From IMG/VR virus record IMGVR_UViG_3300010399_000003, positions 1 through 48,852 of that record: DNA of 48,852 nucleotides, one strand, 5' to 3'. Under the pieces are notes generated by a model that was not told the origin of the DNA, searched no databases, and saw only the letters and a list, made by a program, of their open reading frames with translations. The DNA comes from a virus. The translations under genes and the position numbers were made by a program. This document shows positions 1 through 48,798 of this stretch, piece by piece; positions within the stretch are counted from its first letter, which is position 1, and each line of letters opens with the position of its first letter.

Positions 1-1
1 C

Positions 2-157
2 AAGAAGGACAAGTACTGGCCGAAAGAATGGCCGCAGTGGGAAATGCGGGAAGTGGAAATGTGGGCGTGCGAGTTGCAGAAATACTGCACTGCGCTCGAC
101 GGATTCCAGAAGAACGGGAAGTATGGCAAGTTGAAGCGGAGATTTCGCTACGATTAG
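2..157 (+). CDS. 3' end of a gene truncated at the window start (hypothetical protein); frame 2 reads ...KDKYWPKEWPQWEMREVEMWACELQKYCTALDGFQKNGKYGKLKRRFRYD*
   Basis: Open frame from the window edge to TAG at 155-157, immediately followed by GGAG and the ATG of the next gene. It looks more protein-like than the listed 28..234 ORF. Confidence 0.4.
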   Translation, partial: KKDKYWPKEWPQWEMREVEMWACELQKYCTALDGFQKNGKYGKLKRRFRYD

Positions 158-9591: not shown

Positions 9592-9651
9592 TGTCGTTTG
9601 CAGGTCGCGACAAACCGTCCACCTAGACCTGTCAGCCAGGAGCAATGGCAC

Positions 9652-10413
9652 ATGAGCACTGAACTCGAGAAAGCAAGTTCCGCGGAAATGGCTCGGCCCG
9701 ATTTCGTCACGCAAACGCGGGAAGGCACCGAGCACATTACCAATGCCGACATGCAAATCCCGCGCATGATGTTGGCACAGAAGATGTCGCCGGAGGTCGA
9801 TGACGGCGATGCGAAGCGCGTTCCCGGCCTGAAGGTCGGCGACATGTTCAACGGGTTGACGCATGAAATCTACGGCCGCGGTCCGGTGCAGTTCGTCATC
9901 CTGCGCGCCGATCCGCCACGCTGGGTGGAGTTCATTCCTCGCGAAGAGGGTGGTGGTGTCAAGGACCCGAACGTGCCGGCGAACGACCCGCGGACCGCGT
10001 TTGGGAAGGACGGTTCCAAACCGGCCGCGACGAAGTTCTACGACTACATCATTCTCCTGATGCCGCTTGGCAACGATCCGTTGGCGCGCATGGTGGCGCT
10101 GTCGTTCAAATCCACCGGCCTCAAGATTGCCAAGCAGCTGAACGCGCTCATCAAGCTGCGGAACGCGCCGATTCACGCAGGCGTGTACACCCTGACCAGC
10201 GTGGATACGCAAAATTCGCTCGGCAAATTTGCGATCTTCAACGTCGCCAATGCGGGCTGGGTCACGGATAAAGTCCTCTACGAGCAGCTCGGGCAAATTT
10301 CGGTGTCGATGAAGGACAAGAAGATCGATATCGAGCGGGATCCGGATGAATTCGTGGATCCGGATGCGCCGGACGCGGAACGCGAACCGACTGGCAACGT
10401 CGGTCGGATGTAG
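9652..10413 (+). CDS. hypothetical protein (about 253 aa)
   Basis: ATG at 9652 preceded by AGGAG; the listed ORF begins at an upstream TTG. Confidence 0.6.
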   Translation: MSTELEKASSAEMARPDFVTQTREGTEHITNADMQIPRMMLAQKMSPEVDDGDAKRVPGLKVGDMFNGLTHEIYGRGPVQFVILRADPPRWVEFIPREEGGGVKDPNVPANDPRTAFGKDGSKPAATKFYDYIILLMPLGNDPLARMVALSFKSTGLKIAKQLNALIKLRNAPIHAGVYTLTSVDTQNSLGKFAIFNVANAGWVTDKVLYEQLGQISVSMKDKKIDIERDPDEFVDPDAPDAEREPTGNVGRM

Positions 10414-13734: not shown

Positions 13735-14019
13735 ATGTCCAAGAAGAAAGTCGTTCGTCCCGCCGCACTGTCGCTGAAATCCATGCGTGCCATTCGGAAA
13801 GCGGTGTCACAAGCCGAAGACAAGTTGTATGTCGCTATCGGCCTCCTCGAAGACCAGATGGAGATTTTCGACCACGAAGACGCAACCGCAGCCGAGCTGC
13901 GGATGTCCGATGACCTGGAGTCGGCGCGTGATGCCGGCGAAGACCTCGCGGACTATTTCAAGCACCTGAACGATGCATTGGACCGCATCAAGGTGGCGAA
14001 GAAGGATGGTCGGAAGTAA
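13735..14019 (+). CDS. hypothetical acidic protein
   Basis: Preceded by the full conserved cassette (hairpin plus GGCCTGATGAGGTTCC leader). Confidence 0.55.
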   Translation: MSKKKVVRPAALSLKSMRAIRKAVSQAEDKLYVAIGLLEDQMEIFDHEDATAAELRMSDDLESARDAGEDLADYFKHLNDALDRIKVAKKDGRK

Positions 14020-14666
14020 TGGGGATGCGGCGCTCGACTCGCCAGGAGCTCCGCAAGCTGCGCGAAATTTGCCGGGAAGCACTGGACGGGGTCCGGTGCT
14101 TCCTCTGCAAAGAGCTCATTCTCCAATCGGATAACTGCTATGGTCCCGGCGATGGCGAGGGTTCACCGTTCGAAGTCGGCATTACCATCCATCACGCCGA
14201 CGGGAACCATTCGAACAACGACAAGAAGAATCGCAAGTTAGTTCACACGAAGTGTCACAAATCTCATCACCTCAAGGAGCGGCACGCTCAGCGTCGTGCC
14301 GAAAAGCGAATGGCCAAATCAGCCGCAGCGCCGCGTCTCGTGAAAGGGTTCCATGGGTCCGAGCTCGCTCTGAAATTGAAAGCCGCATTGGACAAGGTCA
14401 AGAGCGACGGCGGCGTGAAGTATCCGGCTCGCAAGCAGAAGTCCACGAAGAAGTCCGGCGATCGTCATGCGTGGGCGAAGAAAATCTTCAACGCAACTCC
14501 GCCTGGGTCGCTTCACGATTATCTCGGCGTGCCTCGCGATAAAAAGATTCCTATCGGCAAATTGAAATGGGCAACTCGTCAAACGAAGACCGCGCTCGAC
14601 AAGAAGTTCGCAGCGAAAGCGGCAATGACCCTGCGGTTCGCGATGAAGCGGGCGGCGGCTCGCTGA
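14019..14666 (+). CDS. HNH endonuclease with a basic C-terminal domain
   Basis: ITIHHADGNHSNNDKKNRKLVHTKCHKSHH carries the HNH core (HH-x-DGN ... N ... CH-x2-H). The C-terminus GKLKWATRQTK...AAKAAMTLR is paralogous to the 14756 protein. Confidence 0.7.
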   Translation: MGMRRSTRQELRKLREICREALDGVRCFLCKELILQSDNCYGPGDGEGSPFEVGITIHHADGNHSNNDKKNRKLVHTKCHKSHHLKERHAQRRAEKRMAKSAAAPRLVKGFHGSELALKLKAALDKVKSDGGVKYPARKQKSTKKSGDRHAWAKKIFNATPPGSLHDYLGVPRDKKIPIGKLKWATRQTKTALDKKFAAKAAMTLRFAMKRAAAR

Positions 14667-18319: not shown

Positions 18320-18784
18320 ATGTCACGAAAGTTGCCGGAACGTTTTCTCAAGTCTGATGGCGAGTCGTTCTGCTCGGTCTGCGACAAGGTCCGAGCGCTC
18401 TGCCGGATGTGCGATCGGTGTCGCGAGCACTGTGAGTGCCCTGAATCATGCGAAGTCTGCGGTGGTCTGACCGGTCCGTTGGCCAGTGCAGTCGCCGACG
18501 TCCAAAAGTTAGAAGTCTGCGGCTGCGTCGATTGCATCATCTGTGGTGAGAAGACTCATCGGGATTACGCGGATTACGGATACGGCCTGACGGAAGAAGA
18601 GGCGTTCGAGAACTCGGGAACGACTGCCACGGCAGTCTGCGAAAAGTGCGTGGCGAAAGGCAAGACTCCGCCGCCGGCAAGTCAGCGTGGGTTTGGCACG
18701 GTAGAACCGCATCGGTGCCCGGAATGCGGTGGTGCGCTCGGTGATTGGGGTTGCGTGACAGTCGGTTGTAACGGAGGACGATGA
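18320..18784 (+). CDS. Cys-rich multi-CxxC zinc-binding protein
   Basis: At least 12 CxxC pairs (CSVC, CRMC, CDRC, CEVC, CGCVDC, CIIC, CEKC, CPEC). Follows the conserved cassette. Confidence 0.55.
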   Translation: MSRKLPERFLKSDGESFCSVCDKVRALCRMCDRCREHCECPESCEVCGGLTGPLASAVADVQKLEVCGCVDCIICGEKTHRDYADYGYGLTEEEAFENSGTTATAVCEKCVAKGKTPPPASQRGFGTVEPHRCPECGGALGDWGCVTVGCNGGR

Positions 18785-28026: not shown

Positions 28027-28363
28027 TGTGAAACAAATTCAACGCGACCTCCACGACGCATTAGAATTGATTGACGTCTTGCAACACGCGACGCAACTAC
28101 ACGGATACGAGCGACAACCCTACTATCGGCAGATTCAGCTCCTCCTGACTCGGGTGCAAACACTGCTCCTCCTGACTCAGACACAGGAAAAATTGAAAGT
28201 CTACGTCATCGCGAACAAACAGACTGACGCGATTGCAACCGGACGAATCTTCAGCTCGGCAGAAGCCGCTGATAAAGGTCTGATGAAGTTGGTCTCATGG
28301 GTGGCTTCGGAAGCCGACATCCGACGCATGTTTGAAGTAACCGAAGTGGAGGTCGAGTCATGA
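28019..28363 (+). CDS. hypothetical protein
   Basis: ATGA overlap. Confidence 0.5.
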   Translation: MTDVKQIQRDLHDALELIDVLQHATQLHGYERQPYYRQIQLLLTRVQTLLLLTQTQEKLKVYVIANKQTDAIATGRIFSSAEAADKGLMKLVSWVASEADIRRMFEVTEVEVES

Positions 28364-29400
28364 CTCAACTCGCACAACCACCCGGTGTGGCAGCACCGTG
28401 GCAAGTCGCCATGGATTCCCACATGAGCGCATTGAAACTAATCAATCATCTCACGAATCATTCGAATGATCTTGATTCGCGGTGGGCGGTCGATAAATTG
28501 ATCATGGAAGACGCCGTGCCGTTTTCGTGGTCCACCGAATCGATCGAAGCAGTCCTGGCCGCGAGTCGAACAATTCCACCGGATACGGTGCTGAACGTCT
28601 GGAATCTCGATACGAATGCCGCGTGGTGGTATTTCGACCAGGAACTGCCGTTTCCCACGATCAACGGCATCGACGGAATTCCGCCAGAGATCGCATCCAA
28701 AACTGGAGTCAAAGCCATGAGCATCGGATGGGTGTTGCATGCGCCTGAGGTTGCCAAGTTTCCAGCTGGCACCGATGTGCGAATTGTGGAACGCGCAATC
28801 CGGGAAGGTCCACCGAAGAAGCGCATGCTCGCAGTCGCGTCGTGGCTGTTAGACCCACTCAAACGATGGACCATGATTCCATCGCAAACGATGCAATGGG
28901 AGTTGAATGATTCACTCGAAGAATTGATGCGCAAATCGAAAACCAAGCATCAACACTTATACGGACCAGGAGGCAAGTGGGAGCGCGTCGCGCATGTCCA
29001 TGAAGACGTGTTCATGAATGCGGCGGAAGGAATGGCTCGATTCATTTTGGCTGGCTTAGCATGGTTGAATCAGAAGGTGCCGATTCTAGTTCAGTCGGAA
29101 GGGCACATCGAACGGCATCGACGTAAGGAATATCAGAAGAAAGTCAATCCGAGTATCACGCATGTGAAAGTCATTTCGCTGCGTCGGGTGGAGCGCCAAA
29201 AGGCGGCAGACCCCGATACAGCACCCGGCGCAAAGCGCGAATATTCTGTCCGATTTCCCGTGGACGGTCACTGGCGCAATCAACCTTACGGACCGAAGCG
29301 CCATGAACGGCGTTTGATCTGGATTTCGCCATTCATCAAAGGTCCTGCGGATAAACCGCTCCGCGTGCCGGAGCACAAAGTCTACAAGGTGAATCGATAA
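28360..29400 (+). CDS. hypothetical protein (346 aa)
   Basis: ATGA overlap; long clean ORF. Confidence 0.55.
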   Translation: MTQLAQPPGVAAPWQVAMDSHMSALKLINHLTNHSNDLDSRWAVDKLIMEDAVPFSWSTESIEAVLAASRTIPPDTVLNVWNLDTNAAWWYFDQELPFPTINGIDGIPPEIASKTGVKAMSIGWVLHAPEVAKFPAGTDVRIVERAIREGPPKKRMLAVASWLLDPLKRWTMIPSQTMQWELNDSLEELMRKSKTKHQHLYGPGGKWERVAHVHEDVFMNAAEGMARFILAGLAWLNQKVPILVQSEGHIERHRRKEYQKKVNPSITHVKVISLRRVERQKAADPDTAPGAKREYSVRFPVDGHWRNQPYGPKRHERRLIWISPFIKGPADKPLRVPEHKVYKVNR

Positions 29401-29513
29401 TGCGTTGGTTTATCTTCAAACTCATCACATACCTGCTAATCTGGTTAGCGAAGATCTTCCTTGGTCTCGCGTTCTGGATAGCTGGCGGGCGAAATGGGAA
29501 AGGGATATCATGA
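29400..29513 (+). CDS. possible 37-aa membrane peptide, absent from the ORF track because it is shorter than 60 aa
   Basis: TAATG overlap upstream and ATGA overlap downstream. MRWFIFKLITYLLIWLAKIFLGLAFWIAGG is a single TM helix. Confidence 0.35.
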   Translation: MRWFIFKLITYLLIWLAKIFLGLAFWIAGGRNGKGIS

Positions 29514-29782
29514 ATCCATGGTGGAGTCAGCAAGAATTCTACTGCAAATGCCAATTTGCACACAGAAGAGATTTCTGGGGTCAATTCATTCCAGGAATAG
29601 ATCCATGGGTGCATGTACACAGACAAGAACCACCGCATGCGTGTGCACGATGCAGTGAATGCAAGGAATATCGTCCTCACATTCCTGAACACATTGGTAT
29701 CAAGATTTTGCTCGGTCCAGAAATATCGGTATCAGAAGCCGCCGATATTTTGCTGGGTAAAGAAGAGAAGGTGGATCGATGA
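29510..29782 (+). CDS. Cys/His-rich small protein
   Basis: MNPWWSQQEFYCKCQFAHRRD...HACARCSECKEY. Confidence 0.4.
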   Translation: MNPWWSQQEFYCKCQFAHRRDFWGQFIPGIDPWVHVHRQEPPHACARCSECKEYRPHIPEHIGIKILLGPEISVSEAADILLGKEEKVDR

Positions 29783-30126
29783 GCAAGAAAATCATTTATC
29801 GCCAAGACTATCTCTCGTCCGACGGCGAAACGAAACACTGGGTTGTCGTCTACGACGATGATTCAATTTCCTGCTCGTGCCGTGGCTTCAGCACACCATC
29901 CAAATGCTGGCATGTAAAAAAAGAAGCCAAAGACATGGGTCTGGAACTCGATATCAGCACATGGGGCGCGAAACTCGGGCCTCCGCTGAAGGATGAACGA
30001 ATGGAAATGCTCGTCAAGGGCAAGACCTTCGTCGCAAATCCGGGACCGCATTCCTATGTGCGGAGTCACCTCACTGTGTGCTATTCGTGCGGAAAACTAA
30101 AGAAGGATCCGATTCACTGGCGATGA
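29779..30126 (+). CDS. SWIM zinc-finger protein
   Basis: ISCSCRGFSTPSKCWHV fits the SWIM CxCxnCxH signature. Confidence 0.55.
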   Translation: MSKKIIYRQDYLSSDGETKHWVVVYDDDSISCSCRGFSTPSKCWHVKKEAKDMGLELDISTWGAKLGPPLKDERMEMLVKGKTFVANPGPHSYVRSHLTVCYSCGKLKKDPIHWR

Positions 30127-30332
30127 ATCTGCGAATCTGGGCAGCCTGTCGATTCTGCGACGGACAACACGTGATTGACTCCTACGATCTAGGATTCGGT
30201 CGCGACAAAGCGGTCTGCGCAAACTGCGTCGAGAAACTCGAAGCACAATTTCCATCGAAGATAGCAAAGCAAATTCTGCTCGGCAATCTTCCTGCGCCGC
30301 CTGGTCTTTTCAGACAGAAGGAGAAACCATGA
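30123..30332 (+). CDS. zinc-ribbon small protein
   Basis: ATGA overlap; CRFCDG...CANC. Confidence 0.4.
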   Translation: MNLRIWAACRFCDGQHVIDSYDLGFGRDKAVCANCVEKLEAQFPSKIAKQILLGNLPAPPGLFRQKEKP

Positions 30333-30778
30333 TTGATGCATTCCGCGGAAAGTACATGAAATTGAGCAACTACTCGCTCGTGACCATCATGTACGAAGGT
30401 CACGCCTACATGTCCGTCGAACATGCGTATCAAGCACAAAAGACGACGGATCCTGTGTTGCAGAAACAAATTCGTGATTCACCAACTCCGGCGACCGCCA
30501 AGAAACTCGCGCGCAGCGTTCCGCTTCGACCGGATTGGGAAGAAGTCAAAGTGCCGATCATGCTCCAATTGCTTCGTGAGAAATTCGCGCAAGAACCGGA
30601 GCGCACGATTCTCATGACGACCTACGATGAGGAGCTCGTCGAAGGCAACTGGTGGAACGATACCTTCTGGGGCGTCTGCAACGGCGTCGGCGAAAACATG
30701 CTCGGTAAATTGCTCATGAAAGTTCGCCAGGAACTTTGGGAAGAGCTGGCTATGGACGGAGGTTCATTGCCAATATGA
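30329..30778 (+). CDS. NADAR-domain protein (YbiA/DUF1768 family ADP-ribose-processing hydrolase)
   Basis: By eye it aligns to E. coli YbiA: SNY...EHAYQAQK, SPTPATAKKLARS, LREKFAQ, LVEGNWWNDTFWGVCNGVGENMLGKLLMKVRQEL. Confidence 0.85.
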   Translation: MIDAFRGKYMKLSNYSLVTIMYEGHAYMSVEHAYQAQKTTDPVLQKQIRDSPTPATAKKLARSVPLRPDWEEVKVPIMLQLLREKFAQEPERTILMTTYDEELVEGNWWNDTFWGVCNGVGENMLGKLLMKVRQELWEELAMDGGSLPI

Positions 30779-31155
30779 TGATCTTGCTGATCTTGCAACT
30801 TATCGTCGCGCCGGACCACCGTCTGACTCCTGGCTTGATCAGGACCAACATCAGCGCCGTCGAATCGTGCGCGACTCGCTGGAGTCTGGATGCACGGCAC
30901 GTGACTACCAGGATGCGCCGGCAGGTTTTCCAAAGTTACGGCATCGCCTGGAGCGACCGACGCTTCTACGTCGTAGACCACCTGATTCCGCGTGAGCTCG
31001 GCGGCGCAGATGATCTGCGAAATTTGTGGCCACAGAGTAAGGCGAATGCCAAGCGCAAAGATGTATGGGAGAATCGCTTACATCGTGATGTTTGCGCAGG
31101 GCGCATGCGATTTGTCGATGCTCAACGCATTATGCGAAACTGGGATCGTCCCTAA
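30775..31155 (+). CDS. HNH endonuclease
   Basis: YVVDHLIPRELGGADDLRNLWPQSKANAKRKD is an HNH core (DH-x-xP ... GG ... N). Confidence 0.75.
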   Translation: MMILLILQLIVAPDHRLTPGLIRTNISAVESCATRWSLDARHVTTRMRRQVFQSYGIAWSDRRFYVVDHLIPRELGGADDLRNLWPQSKANAKRKDVWENRLHRDVCAGRMRFVDAQRIMRNWDRP

Positions 31156-34167: not shown

Positions 34168-34334
34168 CCTATTGGTTATGGCACATCATTATTCCCGCGA
34201 TCCTCGGGTTCATCGCTGGCGTCTATGTCGCCAGTCATCGGCGAACGAAGCGTCTGCGCACTGAAGCGAAAGAAGACCAAGAACGACTGCGGCGTATTGA
34301 ACAGGCCGAGCACAGATTTCGGAGGAGGTCATGA
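34164..34334 (+). CDS. possible 56-aa membrane protein, shorter than 60 aa and absent from the ORF track
   Basis: ATGA overlaps on both sides. MTYWLWHIIIPAILGFIAGVYVASH is a TM helix followed by a basic tail. Confidence 0.35.
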   Translation: MTYWLWHIIIPAILGFIAGVYVASHRRTKRLRTEAKEDQERLRRIEQAEHRFRRRS

Positions 34335-34636
34335 AAGTCGGTGATCGTGTTCGTGAGAATATGGAAGACGGTCCGCAAATTGGTATGCGCGGGACAATCG
34401 AGAAAATCAGTCCGCTAGGTTACATCAAAATCCAGTGGGATCGTCAACACAATCTGTTGCCTGCCTATTTCCGTCCAGGAACAGAAGATGTGATACTCGT
34501 GACCGGCGAAGATGCACGACCGCGCCATGTCTGGAAGGTGCTCGACGATATCCACGCGGACCCGCCCTGCGAAGTGTGCGGAGTGATTCAAACAGATGCG
34601 AACGAACGCGAACCTTGTCCAGGAGCGAAGCCATGA
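34331..34636 (+). CDS. hypothetical protein
   Basis: GGAGGAGGTC upstream; CEVCG. Confidence 0.45.
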   Translation: MKVGDRVRENMEDGPQIGMRGTIEKISPLGYIKIQWDRQHNLLPAYFRPGTEDVILVTGEDARPRHVWKVLDDIHADPPCEVCGVIQTDANEREPCPGAKP

Positions 34637-43214: not shown

Positions 43215-45418
43215 CAGTTTAAATCCCCATGAGCAATATCACTGTGTTGATCACCATGTGGCGTATCGGTATGCAACACATCCGTGTGAGCAACGTCGCC
43301 GTGCGCAGTATCAGCATGTGCTGAATCGGAATGTGCTGTATCTGAGTGAACACCGTCTGCATGAGCCGCAATATCAGAATGTGCTGTATCAGAATGTGCT
43401 GTATCGCCGTGACTAACGTCAGCGTGCGCCACGTCAGAATGTGTGTTGACTAAGGCGACATCCGAATGCGCAGTATCCGAATGTGAATCTACGTGTGCCG
43501 AGTCACTATGTGAATCACTGTGCGAATCGGTATGCGAATCACCATGCGCAATGTGACCAGGTGAATCGAAAAATTCTTCACGATCAACGTGCGAATCAGA
43601 GTGAGAATCTTCGTGTGCGATATCAGAGTGAGCTACGTCGGAGTGGGAATCAGAGTGAGCTACGTCGGAGTGCGCCGTATCACCATGCGTATCACTATGT
43701 GCAGTATCAGTATGCGCGCGGTCTGAATGAGCAGCGTCGCCATGAGCAACGTCTGAATGAGCGACGTCACCGTGCGTTCCAGCATCTGCATGTGCAGCAT
43801 CACCATGGGCAACGTCCTGATGTGCATCATCAGTATGCGTATCGGAATGAGCTATGTCTCCGTGTGCAGTATCCTGATGCACGTCAGAATGAGCCACATC
43901 TGTATGACCAACGATCAAACCAAATCCAAGTCGCGTTGATCCATCAAGTTCGGAAAGTCCCTCGATTTCCAATAACCAAAATGCCGTTGAATCAGCAGGG
44001 ACAAGTGTAAATTCGGTTCGGAGTGTATTATCTTGTTCCGTCTCAGTGATTGAATTAATGTAGAATGAACGCGTGATACCAGTCACGTAATCCGTCAGAC
44101 CAATACGATCACTGATGTCACGATCAAGGCTTCTTGCTAATTCTAATGCATCGCTATTCAAGCCAACAAAACGAACGAGACCCGAAACTTGTGTTATCGG
44201 AAAGGCCATAGAAAAAACGAAATATTGCGCAGCTTCCAATCCAAATCGTGGATCAGCTTGATACACCATATCAATCTGTTGCACGATTGGACCATACTGT
44301 GCAATACTCGTATCGTCTTTCCACTGCATGACAGTCGCACCATAATCATACAATGGTTTCCCGCGTTGTTGTAGTTTCGTCAAATAGCCAGTCACACCTC
44401 CGTTGTACGTCACAGAAAATTCTGTCGCGTTTCCAGAAAAACCAATCGTCACCGACACAAAACCTGTCAGATTCGTTCCGCTTCCATCACTCGCCGTATT
44501 TGCTGTGTAATCGGTAGTCGCTGTGATTGGTGCTAAATCAGCAGCGCCAACACGAACGTCTGGATTATCTGGATCTGTCCAAGGCCCAAGAATTGTAATA
44601 GTCTGGCCAGGGATTAGCTCCATTGGTTGTTTCATCGAGAACATGACAACGTAGCTGGAGCCAGGCACCCGAGGATGAACAGTTGATTGAACCTTGTTGA
44701 TCAGACTAGTACGATCTCGATCGGCGACAAACCCAAAATGATCATCATACACATCAGCATTAGTTGCACTGATTGCACGACGGGTTCTGGATTCATACAC
44801 AACAGTTCCGTCACCACGTATCCAGCAACGATCTAAACCACTAATGCATAGACGATAAATTTCATCGCGAAGCACTGTCTGTTCATCTCGTGTACGATCC
44901 AGTGAATACGGAAAAATATCAGCACTCAAATCCATTTCCAATGCGTCAGGCTGGCTGACGATCGGAATTGAATCAATGAGGACCTGGAAAATCTCGTCAC
45001 CTCGTTTGTTGATTTGTACTGGAAGATTTTCTAATCTCGTTCGCTGTGCAACATCCATCCAATCGACAACTTCACACGATACCGTACGAGGACCGTGCCG
45101 ACCAGTGATTGGAGTGATTGAATCTAACACGCCAGTAAATCGGATGATACTGCCGATTCGATAGCGCACACGGATATTCAATTCAAATCCAGATCTCCTA
45201 TTTTCATGATCTGGACTGTAATATCCGATTAATCCAACACTGTTTCGTTCGCTATTGTCGAGTGAAAAGGACAGAGTGCCGATATCGGCTACAAGATCAA
45301 GAATGGAAGAACCAGGGAGACCACGATGCCACGTGATGCCAGGACCACGAAGCACATCGGTAACGGTCGTCCAACCATTACCACGGCCGCTGAATTCCAT
45401 TTCAATGATGCCACTCAT
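43214..45418 (-). CDS. tail protein (Dit-like position after TMP) with a C-terminal His-Xaa-Asp pentad-repeat domain of about 230 aa
   Basis: 734-aa ORF whose start overlaps the TMP stop. The last 230 residues hold about 46 HxD motifs at roughly 5-residue periodicity (TAHSDVAHSDSHSDVAHSD...). Confidence 0.75.
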   Translation of the reverse strand: MSGIIEMEFSGRGNGWTTVTDVLRGPGITWHRGLPGSSILDLVADIGTLSFSLDNSERNSVGLIGYYSPDHENRRSGFELNIRVRYRIGSIIRFTGVLDSITPITGRHGPRTVSCEVVDWMDVAQRTRLENLPVQINKRGDEIFQVLIDSIPIVSQPDALEMDLSADIFPYSLDRTRDEQTVLRDEIYRLCISGLDRCWIRGDGTVVYESRTRRAISATNADVYDDHFGFVADRDRTSLINKVQSTVHPRVPGSSYVVMFSMKQPMELIPGQTITILGPWTDPDNPDVRVGAADLAPITATTDYTANTASDGSGTNLTGFVSVTIGFSGNATEFSVTYNGGVTGYLTKLQQRGKPLYDYGATVMQWKDDTSIAQYGPIVQQIDMVYQADPRFGLEAAQYFVFSMAFPITQVSGLVRFVGLNSDALELARSLDRDISDRIGLTDYVTGITRSFYINSITETEQDNTLRTEFTLVPADSTAFWLLEIEGLSELDGSTRLGFGLIVGHTDVAHSDVHQDTAHGDIAHSDTHTDDAHQDVAHGDAAHADAGTHGDVAHSDVAHGDAAHSDRAHTDTAHSDTHGDTAHSDVAHSDSHSDVAHSDIAHEDSHSDSHVDREEFFDSPGHIAHGDSHTDSHSDSHSDSAHVDSHSDTAHSDVALVNTHSDVAHADVSHGDTAHSDTAHSDIAAHADGVHSDTAHSDSAHADTAHGDVAHTDVLHTDTPHGDQHSDIAHGDLN
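43217..43915 (-). repeat. imperfect coding tandem repeat (about 15-nt period) encoding the HxD pentads
   Basis: The DNA shows reiterated gaatgtgctgtatc / gagtgagctacgtcg-type units. Confidence 0.8.
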
Positions 45419-48400
45419 GCCGTCCGCAATCCGACTAAGCCAGTAGCGATCGCACGAGACATAGCACGCGGCAGCGATGTTTTCAAATCTGAGCGAAGAC
45501 CGTTGATAGAATCGACGACTTCCTCATTCGACGGCATCTCCGGGAAACCACCCTGATTCAGTTGACGCAAACCTTCATTGCCGAGTCGTTCCATGCCTTT
45601 CGTTGTAACAATGCCCTCGCCAGGTGTAAGCATCGTCGCCACTGTATCCGAACCTCTCGCAGGCCACGGACCTTCGAGCACCGGTCCGCCAACGGCCAAG
45701 TATTGCACACCGGATGCCGTGACGCGACCGCCACGCGATGCGTAATCAGGGATGTCCGGCGCAATGTAATGACCTTCAATCTGGATATCGAAATCCTTGG
45801 GGATTTTATCCAGTTCCGTCTTCATATTCGCGGCAGTCGTTTTAGTCTGTTGCTCCATTGCACGAAGACCTTCAGGGATCTTCGCACCGAGCGCGTCACC
45901 GATTGCCATCAGCACGTCAAGGATCTTTTGATTATCCGATTTCGCCTGTTCACCGATGAGCCCGGATTGCACGCCTTGATCAATCAATGCTTGCGTCGAT
46001 TCATCGACGCTGTAGCCGTAGCGCTGCTGCATCTCCCAGATTGTTTGGAGATCACCACGCATCGCAAGCATCACAGTGTCACTGGAATAACCCTGTGCCA
46101 CCAACGCTTCTTCAGTCGCGGCAATCTGACCGGCCAGACCTGAGAATGTCTCCTGATTCAGGATACCAGCGTTGCTCAGACCGATCATACCAGCGGTGTA
46201 GCCTTCAATGGATTCGAGTGCCGGACCCGCGATTTCATCATTCGCGAAATCAACCATGTTCTTGATGAAATCGAATGCAGCACCTCCAGTGTAACCAGTC
46301 GCTTCCAACTGCGCCTGCAACAATTCGACGTTTGGACCAATCGCCCTGACCGACTCGATAAATGATTTGCCAGCCTCCATGTTCGCCGAGACAATACCAG
46401 CCAACGAACTAGCAACTGCACTCGCGGCTTCTTGTGAATGAAGTCCGGTCACTTCGATAATTCGATCATTGTTCTCGATCTGATCATGCAACGCCATCAA
46501 GCCCTTGTATTCAGCTTCGTTCTTCGCAATGATCTGATCAATCTGGATTTGAATTGCCATTTTATGCCCAAGATCCGCCTTGGCATACTTGGCTTCGAGA
46601 TCCATGATTTTCGCGATGTCTAGGTATTCATCCTGATCCATTTCCGCGCGGCGCTTGGAGAATTCCGCTTGTTGTTTCGCCCGATCTGCGTATGCATTAC
46701 CGGTGATTCTCAATGCCGCACTGAAACCAGTCTGCGCATTAGTTAGCTGACCGGATACATATGCGGCGATCTCTTTCGATTGAGTTCCGTATTGTCCGTT
46801 CAGCTTGATGATTTCAACAAGCTGTTTATCCAACATCCCAAGATTGTTGGTACCAGCTTGTGCAAATTGCGCAAAGTTTTCATCCATGACTTTCGCACCT
46901 TGTGCGATCGTCATTTGATGTGTTTCAATCAGTGAGAACACATCGTGGAATCTATCCGTCATTTGTGCTAGATTATCTTTTGAGAGACCTCCGGCTTCCT
47001 TGATGATATCAGATAAATGCGATATTGCCGCGGCCTGCCGACTTCCTCCGAAATCTTCCTTTGCAGATTTTGCAATCGCCTTCGCAAGATCGTCTGAAAT
47101 CTTCTCACCAAAATCCCGCCCGACTTCTTCCGCAGCCTTGGCCCACGCAGGTTTTCCACGAATGATGCCAACCACCAAACCAGCCGCTGCGCCGACAGCC
47201 ATTCCATAAGGCCCGAACATCGAACCAGCCTGAGCCCCAGCCATCATACCACCAAGTGCGTTACCGGCGGCAGATGAATGTGCGGAAGTCGCGTCCCAAA
47301 CCGCAATTGCACCTTGAGCGATACCAGCTGCGGTTTGTACACCAGCAGCGAACTTCTGCATCCTGTCGGCATTATCATTGAAAATCGTGCTCAGCGGTCC
47401 GAAGTGACCACCAAGTTCATGACCATCAATACCAAGTTGTTTTGATTGCTTATGCGCACTTTCAAGTCCGACAACAACTTGTCCAACTCCGCTGAGTATC
47501 GCACCCATCATCCCGCCGGTCACTTGACCAAGTTTGGTGAAATACTCGGAGATCGTCGCAAGTGACTCAGATGCCCGTCTTTCTGCAGCTGCCAATTTAT
47601 CGAGTTTGATTCTCAGTTCGTCGATTTCTGTAGACTTACGACCGACATCTTCCAAACTTAGCGCCATGTTATAGAAGCCTTGTAATGGCGCAGGAATACT
47701 CCGTTCAACCATTTTAAGTCCAGCAGCAACTTCCACCTGCGTCCGAACCCATTTCAATTCAGTCTCGTCGACTTCTAAGAGTTTTGAATGGAATCCCTTC
47801 AATTCACCGAATTGAATCTTAACGAGCTGCGCACCAATTTTCTTTTGCTCAGCCCATTGTTTTTCTGCATATACAACGCTTTCAACAATGGGTTTTGTTA
47901 CGCTGTATGCCGCGGCGATTTCAGCAATTGATTTACCACGTGCATGATCAAAGGCGATTCCTTCATATAACGTCGCGCCAATTTTGGCCATGACGTTTTG
48001 ATAATCGCCAAGTTTTGCATTGTAATTCGTCAAAGCCGCTTCGATTTTTGTCTGTTCGGCTGCGGATTTCTTGAGTTCCGTGATGTAGGCTTTCGTTGCC
48101 GCTTCTGTCGCACCAGTGACTTTGAGGATTTCCTTTATCGACTCGGTGTTCATAGCCACGCGAGTATATTCTTTTTGTGCTTCAGTCAGCGGCGTTAACG
48201 CAGCATCTTTCAAAGATTTCAATTTCTGTGACATCAAATCGGCACCAGCCGCACTGTTCGCCATGGATGCTGCAACAGCTTGTAGTGCAGGATGCCCAGC
48301 CAGAGCCTCTTTATTTACTCCGGCGATAGCAACTCCAACCTGTTTCATTAATGGCGTCGAAAAATTATTCGCTTTTGCCGTCGCCATCACTGAACGTTCA

Positions 48401-48798
48401 AGTTCGTCGAGTTGCGTCGCCGTGTGTCCAGAATTACTTGATAGATCTGAAATCGCTTCTTGTAAATCTTTCGCCCCACCGTGCGCTTTACGAAACTGTT
48501 CGTTATTGAAAGCAATTGCTTCGGCGTAGCGTTTGGCTTGATCTGTTTCGGTTGACGACCAACCATCTTTCAGAGCTTTATTCAATACGAATTGTTTGGC
48601 TGCAGCTGTTTCTGTTTGTAATTGTGCTTCTGCAGTCGCCTGCCGCCAACTTGTATAAGCCAAAGTCACGCCAGCAATCGCAGCCGCGATTGCCACAAAT
48701 GGATGTGCCAAAATGATATTGTAGAGTTTGGTAAAAGCTGCACCGAGATTCGCCAAAGCTGCTTCACCGAGTGTTCCCCATCCAAACGCTTGGGTCAT
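45415..48798 (-). CDS. tail tape-measure protein (possibly 5'-truncated by the window edge)
   Basis: 1127 aa, alpha-helical and rich in Ala, Gln and Lys, with Gly-rich hydrophobic segments (GGMMGAILSGVGQVVVGL; GAAAGLVVGIIRG). The frame stays open upstream of the ATG to the window end. Confidence 0.8.
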   Translation of the reverse strand: MTQAFGWGTLGEAALANLGAAFTKLYNIILAHPFVAIAAAIAGVTLAYTSWRQATAEAQLQTETAAAKQFVLNKALKDGWSSTETDQAKRYAEAIAFNNEQFRKAHGGAKDLQEAISDLSSNSGHTATQLDELERSVMATAKANNFSTPLMKQVGVAIAGVNKEALAGHPALQAVAASMANSAAGADLMSQKLKSLKDAALTPLTEAQKEYTRVAMNTESIKEILKVTGATEAATKAYITELKKSAAEQTKIEAALTNYNAKLGDYQNVMAKIGATLYEGIAFDHARGKSIAEIAAAYSVTKPIVESVVYAEKQWAEQKKIGAQLVKIQFGELKGFHSKLLEVDETELKWVRTQVEVAAGLKMVERSIPAPLQGFYNMALSLEDVGRKSTEIDELRIKLDKLAAAERRASESLATISEYFTKLGQVTGGMMGAILSGVGQVVVGLESAHKQSKQLGIDGHELGGHFGPLSTIFNDNADRMQKFAAGVQTAAGIAQGAIAVWDATSAHSSAAGNALGGMMAGAQAGSMFGPYGMAVGAAAGLVVGIIRGKPAWAKAAEEVGRDFGEKISDDLAKAIAKSAKEDFGGSRQAAAISHLSDIIKEAGGLSKDNLAQMTDRFHDVFSLIETHQMTIAQGAKVMDENFAQFAQAGTNNLGMLDKQLVEIIKLNGQYGTQSKEIAAYVSGQLTNAQTGFSAALRITGNAYADRAKQQAEFSKRRAEMDQDEYLDIAKIMDLEAKYAKADLGHKMAIQIQIDQIIAKNEAEYKGLMALHDQIENNDRIIEVTGLHSQEAASAVASSLAGIVSANMEAGKSFIESVRAIGPNVELLQAQLEATGYTGGAAFDFIKNMVDFANDEIAGPALESIEGYTAGMIGLSNAGILNQETFSGLAGQIAATEEALVAQGYSSDTVMLAMRGDLQTIWEMQQRYGYSVDESTQALIDQGVQSGLIGEQAKSDNQKILDVLMAIGDALGAKIPEGLRAMEQQTKTTAANMKTELDKIPKDFDIQIEGHYIAPDIPDYASRGGRVTASGVQYLAVGGPVLEGPWPARGSDTVATMLTPGEGIVTTKGMERLGNEGLRQLNQGGFPEMPSNEEVVDSINGLRSDLKTSLPRAMSRAIATGLVGLRTA

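Follow-up and report, generated by a model that had tools for sequence, protein, structure and literature searches.

A 48,852-nucleotide stretch of viral DNA (positions 1 to 48,852 of IMG/VR record IMGVR_UViG_3300010399_000003; called the window below, meaning the whole stretch analysed) encodes a 149-amino-acid (aa) protein with a NADAR domain. From comparisons of its sequence, we consider it very probable that this protein is an active ADP-ribosyl nucleic-acid N-glycohydrolase, and we favour, with moderate confidence, the more specific reading that it is an AdfN-type orphan antitoxin of an uncultured soil phage, erasing guanine marks of the DarT1 type. That a phage NADAR can counter DarT is already published for AdfN, concept and mechanism alike; what the window adds is a residue signature (K/N/W versus A/H/E at three positions), the co-occurrence of such a gene with a thymidine-hypermodification gene set, and a previously unseen soil phage. 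If this reading holds, AdfN-type counter-defence would not be confined to coliphages but would extend to an uncultured soil phage of ~113 kb unrelated to them, and the case would support DNA ADP-ribosylation as a widespread pressure on phages.

Family, fold and active site

An initial annotation of the window had drawn a NADAR open reading frame (ORF) at 30329-30778 and assigned its product to the YbiA/NADAR family. The ORF was exact, running from ATG to TGA on the + strand, and the protein is unambiguously a member of the NADAR superfamily with a predicted YbiA-like alpha+beta fold. It matched Pfam NADAR PF08719 (DUF1768 / COG3236) with E=6.7e-26 (91.9 bits against a cut-off of 35.1) and phrog_1017 with E=9.4e-40 (137 bits), and it carries the recognisable NADAR motifs LSNY, SVEHAYQAQK, VEGNWWNDTFWG, and GENMLGKLLMKVR. 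Its best sequence match in the PDB was the E. coli YbiA structure 2b3w (E=2.8e-20), and a Phytophthora NADAR was matched at E=1.3e-4 from the single sequence and at 2.8e-14 from a family profile. An AlphaFold2 (AF2) model built from 63 homologues reached a mean predicted local distance difference test (pLDDT) score of 96.2. Foldseek aligned this model with YbiA 2b3w at a template modelling (TM) score of 0.80 and with the complex of Phytophthora nicotianae NADAR (PnNADAR) and ADP-ribose (ADPr; 8bau) at 0.77, the DarT1-associated G. lovleyi NADAR (8bat) being a poor match (TM 0.50); no fold other than NADAR was found in the PDB at E<0.1. The protein scored below the cut-off of the DS-32 NADAR anti-phage model (NCBIfam NF053876; 65.2 bits against 240), and PADLOC returned only a weak PDC-M42C match (E=1.4e-7), giving no defence-family membership.

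Every residue that contacts ADPr in PnNADAR, or that is required in E. coli C7 DarG1 or in AdfN of phage T4 (AdfN-T4, gp30.3), is present in the window protein. E31 and K38 correspond to PnNADAR E43/K50, E. coli C7 DarG1 E88/K95, and AdfN-T4 E36/K43, a catalytic pair backed by mutagenesis (PMC11543638; PMC11257639), and E105 corresponds to PnNADAR E125 (Glu type), D111 to D130, and W114 to W133. In an alignment of 260 sequences drawn from the window clade, genome relatives, phage relatives, and the YbiA clade, residues E31, K38, R62, W70, K74, E105, D111, and W114 were conserved in all groups (PnNADAR E43, K50, R79, W89, R93, E125, D130, and W133). The active site is intact, and the best explanation is a catalytically competent enzyme.

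Relatives and a possible role against DarT1

The reference sequences compared were E. coli YbiA, T4 gp30.3, and AdfN-Bas32; AdfN-Bas60 (from a phi92-like phage) lay outside the comparison. Among these references AdfN-Bas32 is, by sequence, the closest experimentally characterised relative. BLASTP aligned it with the window protein over 146 aa at 43% identity (115 bits, 9e-38), aligned E. coli YbiA over 132 aa at 39% identity (85.5 bits), and gave no match to T4 AdfN. AdfN-Bas32 is bas32_0066, a 149-aa protein of Escherichia phage IrisVonRoten (T5-like, Markadamsvirinae), and its gene is the sole NADAR locus in the complete 112,239-bp Bas32 genome, as judged by tblastn searches, which used six diverse NADARs and, as a control, the Bas32 protein, and by a hidden Markov model (HMM) search of all six-frame ORFs.

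We built a 66-sequence neighbour-joining (NJ) tree with 500 bootstraps, and a full-data Kimura NJ tree as a second. The E. coli YbiA clade (18 sequences) was monophyletic in 488 of the 500 NJ bootstraps, with the window protein outside it. AdfN-Bas32 and the window protein both fell within a loose assemblage of stand-alone NADARs from phages, bacteria, and archaea, in line with the published position of AdfN-Bas32 close to archaeal NADARs (PMC11825919).

These relatives are widely spread. An identical NADAR protein is encoded on 9 metagenomic contigs, which come from at least 4 samples (ENA, JGI, Logan) and of which the longest has 112,870 bp, and the phrog_1017 or window-type gene is found in 535 phage records. 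A scan of one genome per GTDB species gave 301 relatives at 44-57% identity, of which the best 80 were kept, with members in Planctomycetes, Myxococcales, Chloroflexi, Firmicutes, Cyanobacteria, and several archaea. Copies of the Bas32-type adfN itself, 95-100% identical in nucleotide sequence, were found in 96 records, chiefly of T5-like Escherichia and Salmonella phages; the gene also occurs in the BASEL phage HildyBeyeler (MZ501074), which is absent from the list in the AdfN paper. Its copies are annotated as 'swarming motility protein YbiA', 'GTP cyclohydrolase II', 'riboflavin biosynthesis protein', or hypothetical, and just one record bears the label 'antitoxin-like enzyme'. A second, PnNADAR-like type was found by tblastn with PnNADAR in 886 phage records, from Staphylococcus Kayvirus, Bacillus, Listeria, jumbo Erwinia/Serratia phages, and 150 Escherichia phages; these records overlap little with the 535 of the window type, although some phages, such as Staphylococcus MCE-2014, match both queries.

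Three positions distinguish the window protein from the YbiA clade. Position 58 is Lys in the window clade (119/120), in the genome relatives (17/18), and in all 8 phage relatives, AdfN-Bas32 included, and is Ala in 113 of 114 YbiA-clade sequences. Position 107 is Asn in the three former groups and His in the YbiA clade (110/114), and position 109 is Trp in those groups and Glu, Thr, or Ala in the YbiA clade. The window protein, with K, N, and W, does not carry the YbiA-clade signature of A58, H107, and E/T109 (window numbering). The lysine equivalent to K58 in DarG1, K115, is dispensable for catalysis and essential for rescue of cells from DarT1 (Schuller et al. 2023; PMC11543638). In our own alignment this position is Lys in the rescuers DarG1 and Bas32, Ala in YbiA, and Gln in T4 AdfN, the latter two being unable to rescue uninfected cells; with four proteins only, it is suggestive that Lys58 tracks with rescue of uninfected cells from DarT1. 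K/N/W versus A/H/E at positions 58, 107, and 109 is a simple sequence rule that may split counter-defence NADARs from housekeeping YbiA, two kinds that automatic annotation at present puts together under 'riboflavin' or 'swarming motility' names.

More than 500 phage records contain NADARs with K58/N107/W109 ('EGNxW'), and many bacteria and archaea carry them as stand-alone genes. Tentatively, and with more doubt than conviction, we raise the idea that these NADARs form a distinct lineage of orphan antitoxins apart from housekeeping YbiA, in which the lysine shared with DarG1 would make the enzymes effective on DNA in vivo. In the phage studied here such an enzyme could have adapted to hypermodified DNA in the way that AdfN-T4 has to hydroxymethylcytosine (hmC) DNA, and it might cover cytidine-ADPr too.

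The same data bear on a housekeeping role, in which the protein would be a YbiA-like metabolic N-glycosidase of reactive riboflavin-pathway intermediates, or of a related small ribosyl compound, acting in the infected cell. The protein passes TIGR02464, the NCBIfam riboflavin N-glycosidase model, at 84.3 bits against a cut-off of 73.7; its identity to YbiA and its structural match to 2b3w point the same way, and many database copies are auto-named 'ribA/ribD-fused uncharacterized protein'. The pass is marginal, however, at half the score of YbiA (169.5 bits), and AdfN-Bas32 scored 66.3 bits and T4 AdfN gave no match. TIGR02464 barely admits the window protein and barely rejects AdfN-Bas32, whose action against DarT1 is proven; the model does not discriminate function in that range. 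The corresponding phrog_1017 scores were 153 bits for AdfN-Bas32, 137 for the window protein, and 134 for YbiA, with T4 AdfN belonging to phrog_652 instead. Given the position of the window protein outside the YbiA clade, its differing residues at positions 58, 107, and 109, the absence of riboflavin genes from the scanned window and from the surroundings of homologues, and an activity of no obvious use to a phage, we regard the metabolic role as improbable. The initial annotation had asked whether the protein would group with riboflavin-intermediate N-glycosidases only; the tree puts it elsewhere, but the TIGR02464 pass and the weak deep branching keep the separation from being clean.

Published experiments give the preferred role its substance. 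NADARs reverse guanine ADP-ribosylation by DarT1, and their catalytic residues have been defined (Schuller et al. 2023; PMC11543638). DarT1-linked, sigma70-linked, YbiA, and T4 NADARs all hydrolyse ADP-ribosylated guanine (G-ADPr) on DNA in vitro, and none of the NADARs tested hydrolyses ADP-ribosylated thymidine (T-ADPr; Cihlova et al. 2024). T4 gp30.3 was named AdfN, for anti-DarT factor NADAR (Johannesman et al., bioRxiv 2024; Nat Commun 2025; PMC11257639; PMC11825919), and in HIDEN-SEQ, as an independent confirmation, T4 adfN proved conditionally essential on DarTG1. The unrelated AdfN-Bas32 (T5-like) and AdfN-Bas60 (phi92-like) counteract DarT1 inside cells and let RB69, T5, and Bas25 grow again on DarTG1 hosts, with DarTG2 unaffected (PMC11825919).

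By analogy, the window NADAR would be expressed alongside replication and nucleotide-metabolism genes and would bind ADP-ribosylated guanine in phage DNA, with E31, K38, R62, W70, K74, D111, and W114 holding the ADP-ribose and with E105 and E31 placed around the distal ribose. Cleavage of the N-glycosidic bond between the distal ribose of ADP-ribose and guanine N2 would then erase the marks left on replicating DNA by an infection-activated DarT1-type toxin, and replication would go on. The initial annotation had proposed counter-defence against DarT in general. Through homology to AdfN-Bas32 this is the best-supported reading, but for guanine and DarT1 only: a role against DarTG2 or on thymidine was rejected, all tested NADARs being inactive on T-ADPr, and rescue from DarTG2 is expected to be negative because every NADAR tested fails on T-ADPr and DarTG2.

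Several points weigh against the DarT1 role. The substrate, efficacy in vivo, early timing, and DarT1-bearing host are all things that we infer. An identity of 43% to AdfN-Bas32 does not guarantee a like specificity in vivo, and YbiA and T4 AdfN, although active on G-ADPr in vitro, leave plain E. coli unprotected against DarT1 (Cihlova et al. 2024). The split of the assemblage with Bas32 from the YbiA clade appeared in 313 of 500 bootstraps and was missing from the full-data Kimura NJ tree, and TIGR02464 was passed by the window protein and not by AdfN-Bas32. Finally, according to a 2026 study, NADARs of the Glu type (the 'NADAR' and YbiA families) also clear cytidine-ADPr in DNA and RNA, whereas Asp-type DarG1 and His-type T4 NADARs act on G-ADPr only, so that the target of the window protein may be broader or different.

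This last point leads to a second explanation, that the protein is a broader or different nucleic-acid de-ADP-ribosylase acting on C and/or G, in DNA or RNA, and on marks other than those of DarT, such as those made by pierisin/ScARP-like, YarT-like, or undiscovered defence or interbacterial ADP-ribosyltransferases (ARTs). Its glutamate variant at E105 would fit such a range, ScARP-type toxins are known from soil, the source of the window, and a YbiA-type NADAR serves as antitoxin to the non-DarT toxin YarT. We nevertheless judge this unlikely, given that the nearest tested relative acts against DarT1 and that no such transferase is known as an anti-phage system; mechanistically it overlaps with the DarT1 role.

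Phage setting and neighbouring genes

The initial annotation had also taken the gene to be phage-borne, which was borne out by phage-type replication genes, PHROG and Pfam matches, and many ORFans in the window; these features support its being part of a phage genome. A + strand block from 1 to ~35.5 kb holds a thymidylate-synthase-like gene, SNF2 and UvrD helicases, an ATP-dependent ligase, an RNase T-like exonuclease, a cold-shock protein, HNH endonucleases, and dozens of small ORFans. A - strand block from 35.8 kb holds a peptidase-like PHROG match, a radical SAM protein, and large ORFs, and the GC skew flips sign where the two blocks meet. Megablast of window positions 20000-44000 against 50,697 phage records gave no match, a tRNA search found none, and a scan for consensus promoters and terminators over 26-36.5 kb gave counts at or below shuffled expectation. 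Early expression of the NADAR gene, which the initial annotation had assumed, is suggested only by its position in the co-directional replication and nucleotide-metabolism block.

Features of the NADAR locus in the window, with diagnostic codons
Feature	Position	Strand	Description
NADAR-domain gene	30329..30778	+	149 aa; ATG start, TGA stop; minimal YbiA-like core without N-terminal extension
Shine-Dalgarno-like AGGAGA	30319..30324	+	4 nucleotides 5' of the NADAR ATG; read from sequence
Upstream Cys-rich ORF	30078..30332	+	84 aa; TGA overlaps the NADAR ATG as ATGA; weak C6_DPF match (E=0.0084)
Downstream ORF	30775..31155	+	126 aa; in-frame ATG at 30775 overlaps the NADAR TGA as ATGA
E31 and K38 codons in SVEHAYQAQK	30419..30442	+	catalytic / phosphate-binding pair; from alignments, near-invariant in relatives
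K58 codon	30500..30502	+	equivalent to PnNADAR K75 and E. coli C7 DarG1 K115
Codons E105-G-N107-W-W109-N-D111-T-F-W114	30641..30670	+	N107 (30647-30649) and W109 (30653-30655) clade-specific

The overlap at its 5' end makes translational coupling of the upstream ORF to NADAR probable, and the NADAR gene belongs to a tightly packed and probably translationally coupled run of + strand genes. The start of the downstream ORF is the one called on the source contig for a 126-aa product. This ORF is the neighbour that the initial annotation had described as an HNH nuclease. It does contain an HNH/His-Me-finger-like motif, DHLIPRELGGADDLRNLWP (DHLIPRELGG...N; pattern DH..P...GG.....N), which follows a hydrophobic N-terminus (MMILLILQLIVAP) and lacks the usual Cys pairs, but its matches were all below threshold (Pfam HNH E=0.0085, phrog_144 E=0.0035, phrog_9508 E=0.0062), a PDB sequence search gave no meaningful match, and the ORF was not kept beside NADAR homologues at 65-72% identity on other phage-like contigs. 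Elsewhere in the replication block, the HNH gene at 167-835 had a strong Pfam HNH match (E=3.6e-9), and that at 14019-14666 matched four HNH PHROGs (E ~1e-5); both are probably homing endonucleases.

Two to three genes 5' of the NADAR gene, a 346-aa protein (28360-29400) has a weak precomputed Pfam match on the source contig to an AcrVA2-like family (PF26125) and a phrog_15934 match at its C-terminus, and our own Pfam scan gave no match for it at E<=0.01; its gene may also serve anti-defence. Many small Cys-rich ORFs with CxxC repeats lie around NADAR (29405-30332, 18320-18784, and others), one of them (18320-18784) with more than 20 cysteines, and a weak SWIM zinc-finger match was seen at 29779-30126. 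Among ~60 small ORFs scanned, the only other clear Pfam families were a Pam3 gp34-like protein (PF23977, E=1.5e-31) and a DUF6166 protein (E=9e-22), at 9598-10413 and in the 34305-34607 region; 'Serglycin' matches were discarded as an artefact of the GS linkers in concatenated pseudo-proteins. In the convergent - strand block (35808-48798), a 1127-aa ORF weakly matches tape measure (phrog_167, E=2e-4), and beside it stand a 434-aa radical SAM protein (41910-43214) and a DUF483 protein (40769-41935), odd companions in a tail module; ORFs of 734, 554, and 436 aa on the same strand had no matches or ORFan PHROG matches only.

We looked for a partner of the NADAR gene in the window and at related loci. 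A Pfam scan of nearly every window ORF found no DarT or other ADP-ribosyltransferase, macro, Nudix, NAD-salvage, or riboflavin gene, and riboflavin genes or a dinG-ybiB operon were found neither in the window, nor beside close homologues, nor at the 80 kept genome loci. Homologues at 65-72% identity on other phage-like contigs have as neighbours RecT with an N6/N4 methylase, sugar-nucleotide enzymes, and ThyX with KTSC. When flanking ORFs were clustered for the best 80 of the 301 bacterial and archaeal loci, no neighbour family occurred in more than 6; the best clusters (<=6 loci) were amidase-like and HAD-like proteins from related deltaproteobacterial metagenome-assembled genomes, and one 10-locus cluster overlaps the NADAR match itself. 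With no DarT, riboflavin, or NAD gene nearby and no conserved neighbour, the gene is therefore an orphan, and judging from these neighbourhoods it is a stand-alone, horizontally mobile unit.

The same scans speak to the suggestion that the protein scavenges soluble ADP-ribose-derived molecules, which Iyer et al. 2022 put forward for phage NADARs from contextual evidence and with which the conserved ADP-ribose-binding pocket is compatible. No NAD-salvage, RNA-repair, macro, SLOG, or Nudix gene was detected in the window, DNA-linked ADPr is the target of all experimentally tested phage NADARs, and cleavage of signalling nucleotides has been shown for no NADAR; we hold this no less improbable than the metabolic role.

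The phage appears to encode a thymidine-hypermodification pathway. Positions 1899-2960 encode a 353-aa thymidylate synthase (TS) homologue that aligns along its entire length, at 45% identity, with the 'thymidylate synthase/dUMP hydroxymethyltransferase' found in Pseudomonas phages such as MP1412, LKO4, and AN14, which we take to be M6/YuA-like. A 5-hydroxymethyldeoxyuridine (5-hmdU) DNA kinase gene (PF18723) lies just 5' on the contig, its 3' end forming window positions 1-157, and the contig just 5' of the window also carries a weakly matched amino-acid:DNA transferase (ADDT), a radical SAM/SPASM protein, a HAD hydrolase, weakly matched glycosyl- and methyltransferases, and a family A DNA polymerase. 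A NADAR serving the DNA chemistry of the phage itself, either within this pathway or by reversing a phage-encoded ART, would account for the 5-hmdU DNA kinase, the ADDT-like and radical SAM/SPASM genes, and the dUMP-hydroxymethylase-like TS homologue on the same contig, and the putrescinyl-thymine phage PhiW-14 has a 49%-identical NADAR. We consider this very improbable: ~27 kb separate NADAR from the hypermodification gene set, many phages whose DNA is ordinary, T5-like ones for example, have homologues, no ART was found in the window, and known hypermodification chemistry includes no ribosyl N-glycoside.

Comparison with characterised NADARs

The window protein shares with the DarG1/BC4488-type antitoxins (E. 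coli C7; G. lovleyi 8bat) its superfamily, the proposed chemistry, and the lysine equivalent to K115 (K58). These antitoxins have an adjacent DarT1, an N-terminal beta1-beta2-alpha1 extension, and a catalytic Asp (D171 in E. coli C7), whereas the window gene lacks the partner and its protein lacks the extension, the 149-aa core beginning directly at the LSNY strand, and has Glu105 in place of the Asp. With PnNADAR (8bau) and the stand-alone 'NADAR family' (SCO5665, and the sigma70-linked protein of enteropathogenic E. coli, EPEC), the ADPr-contacting residues are alignable and conserved; PnNADAR differs in its ~32% identity and in its own N-terminal extension and ~25-residue insertion, both missing in the window protein.

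E. coli K-12 YbiA (2b3w), a riboflavin-intermediate N-glycosidase that also hydrolyses G- and C-ADPr in vitro, resembles the window protein in its Glu-type catalytic position and similar length. It has A/H/E where the window protein has K58/N107/W109, its LexA/dinG-ybiB operon has no counterpart around the window gene, and, unlike AdfN-Bas32, it does not rescue cells from DarT1. AdfN-T4 (gp30.3), the founding phage anti-DarTG1 NADAR, is likewise a phage orphan of ~150 aa with the Glu/Lys pair and without the DarG1 N-terminal extension, but it shows no BLASTP similarity, falls in phrog_652, has His at the E105 position, and works best on T-even modified DNA.

AdfN-Bas32 differs from the window protein at 57% of residues, its host and phage lineage are unrelated, and activity is known for Bas32 only. 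In other respects the two are alike: each is a 149-aa phrog_1017 protein consisting of the minimal core without N-terminal extension, each has K58/N107/W109 and the motifs EGN-W-D-WGVC and G-N-LG-LLM-VR, and each is encoded by an orphan gene in a replication and nucleotide-metabolism region near thymidylate synthase.

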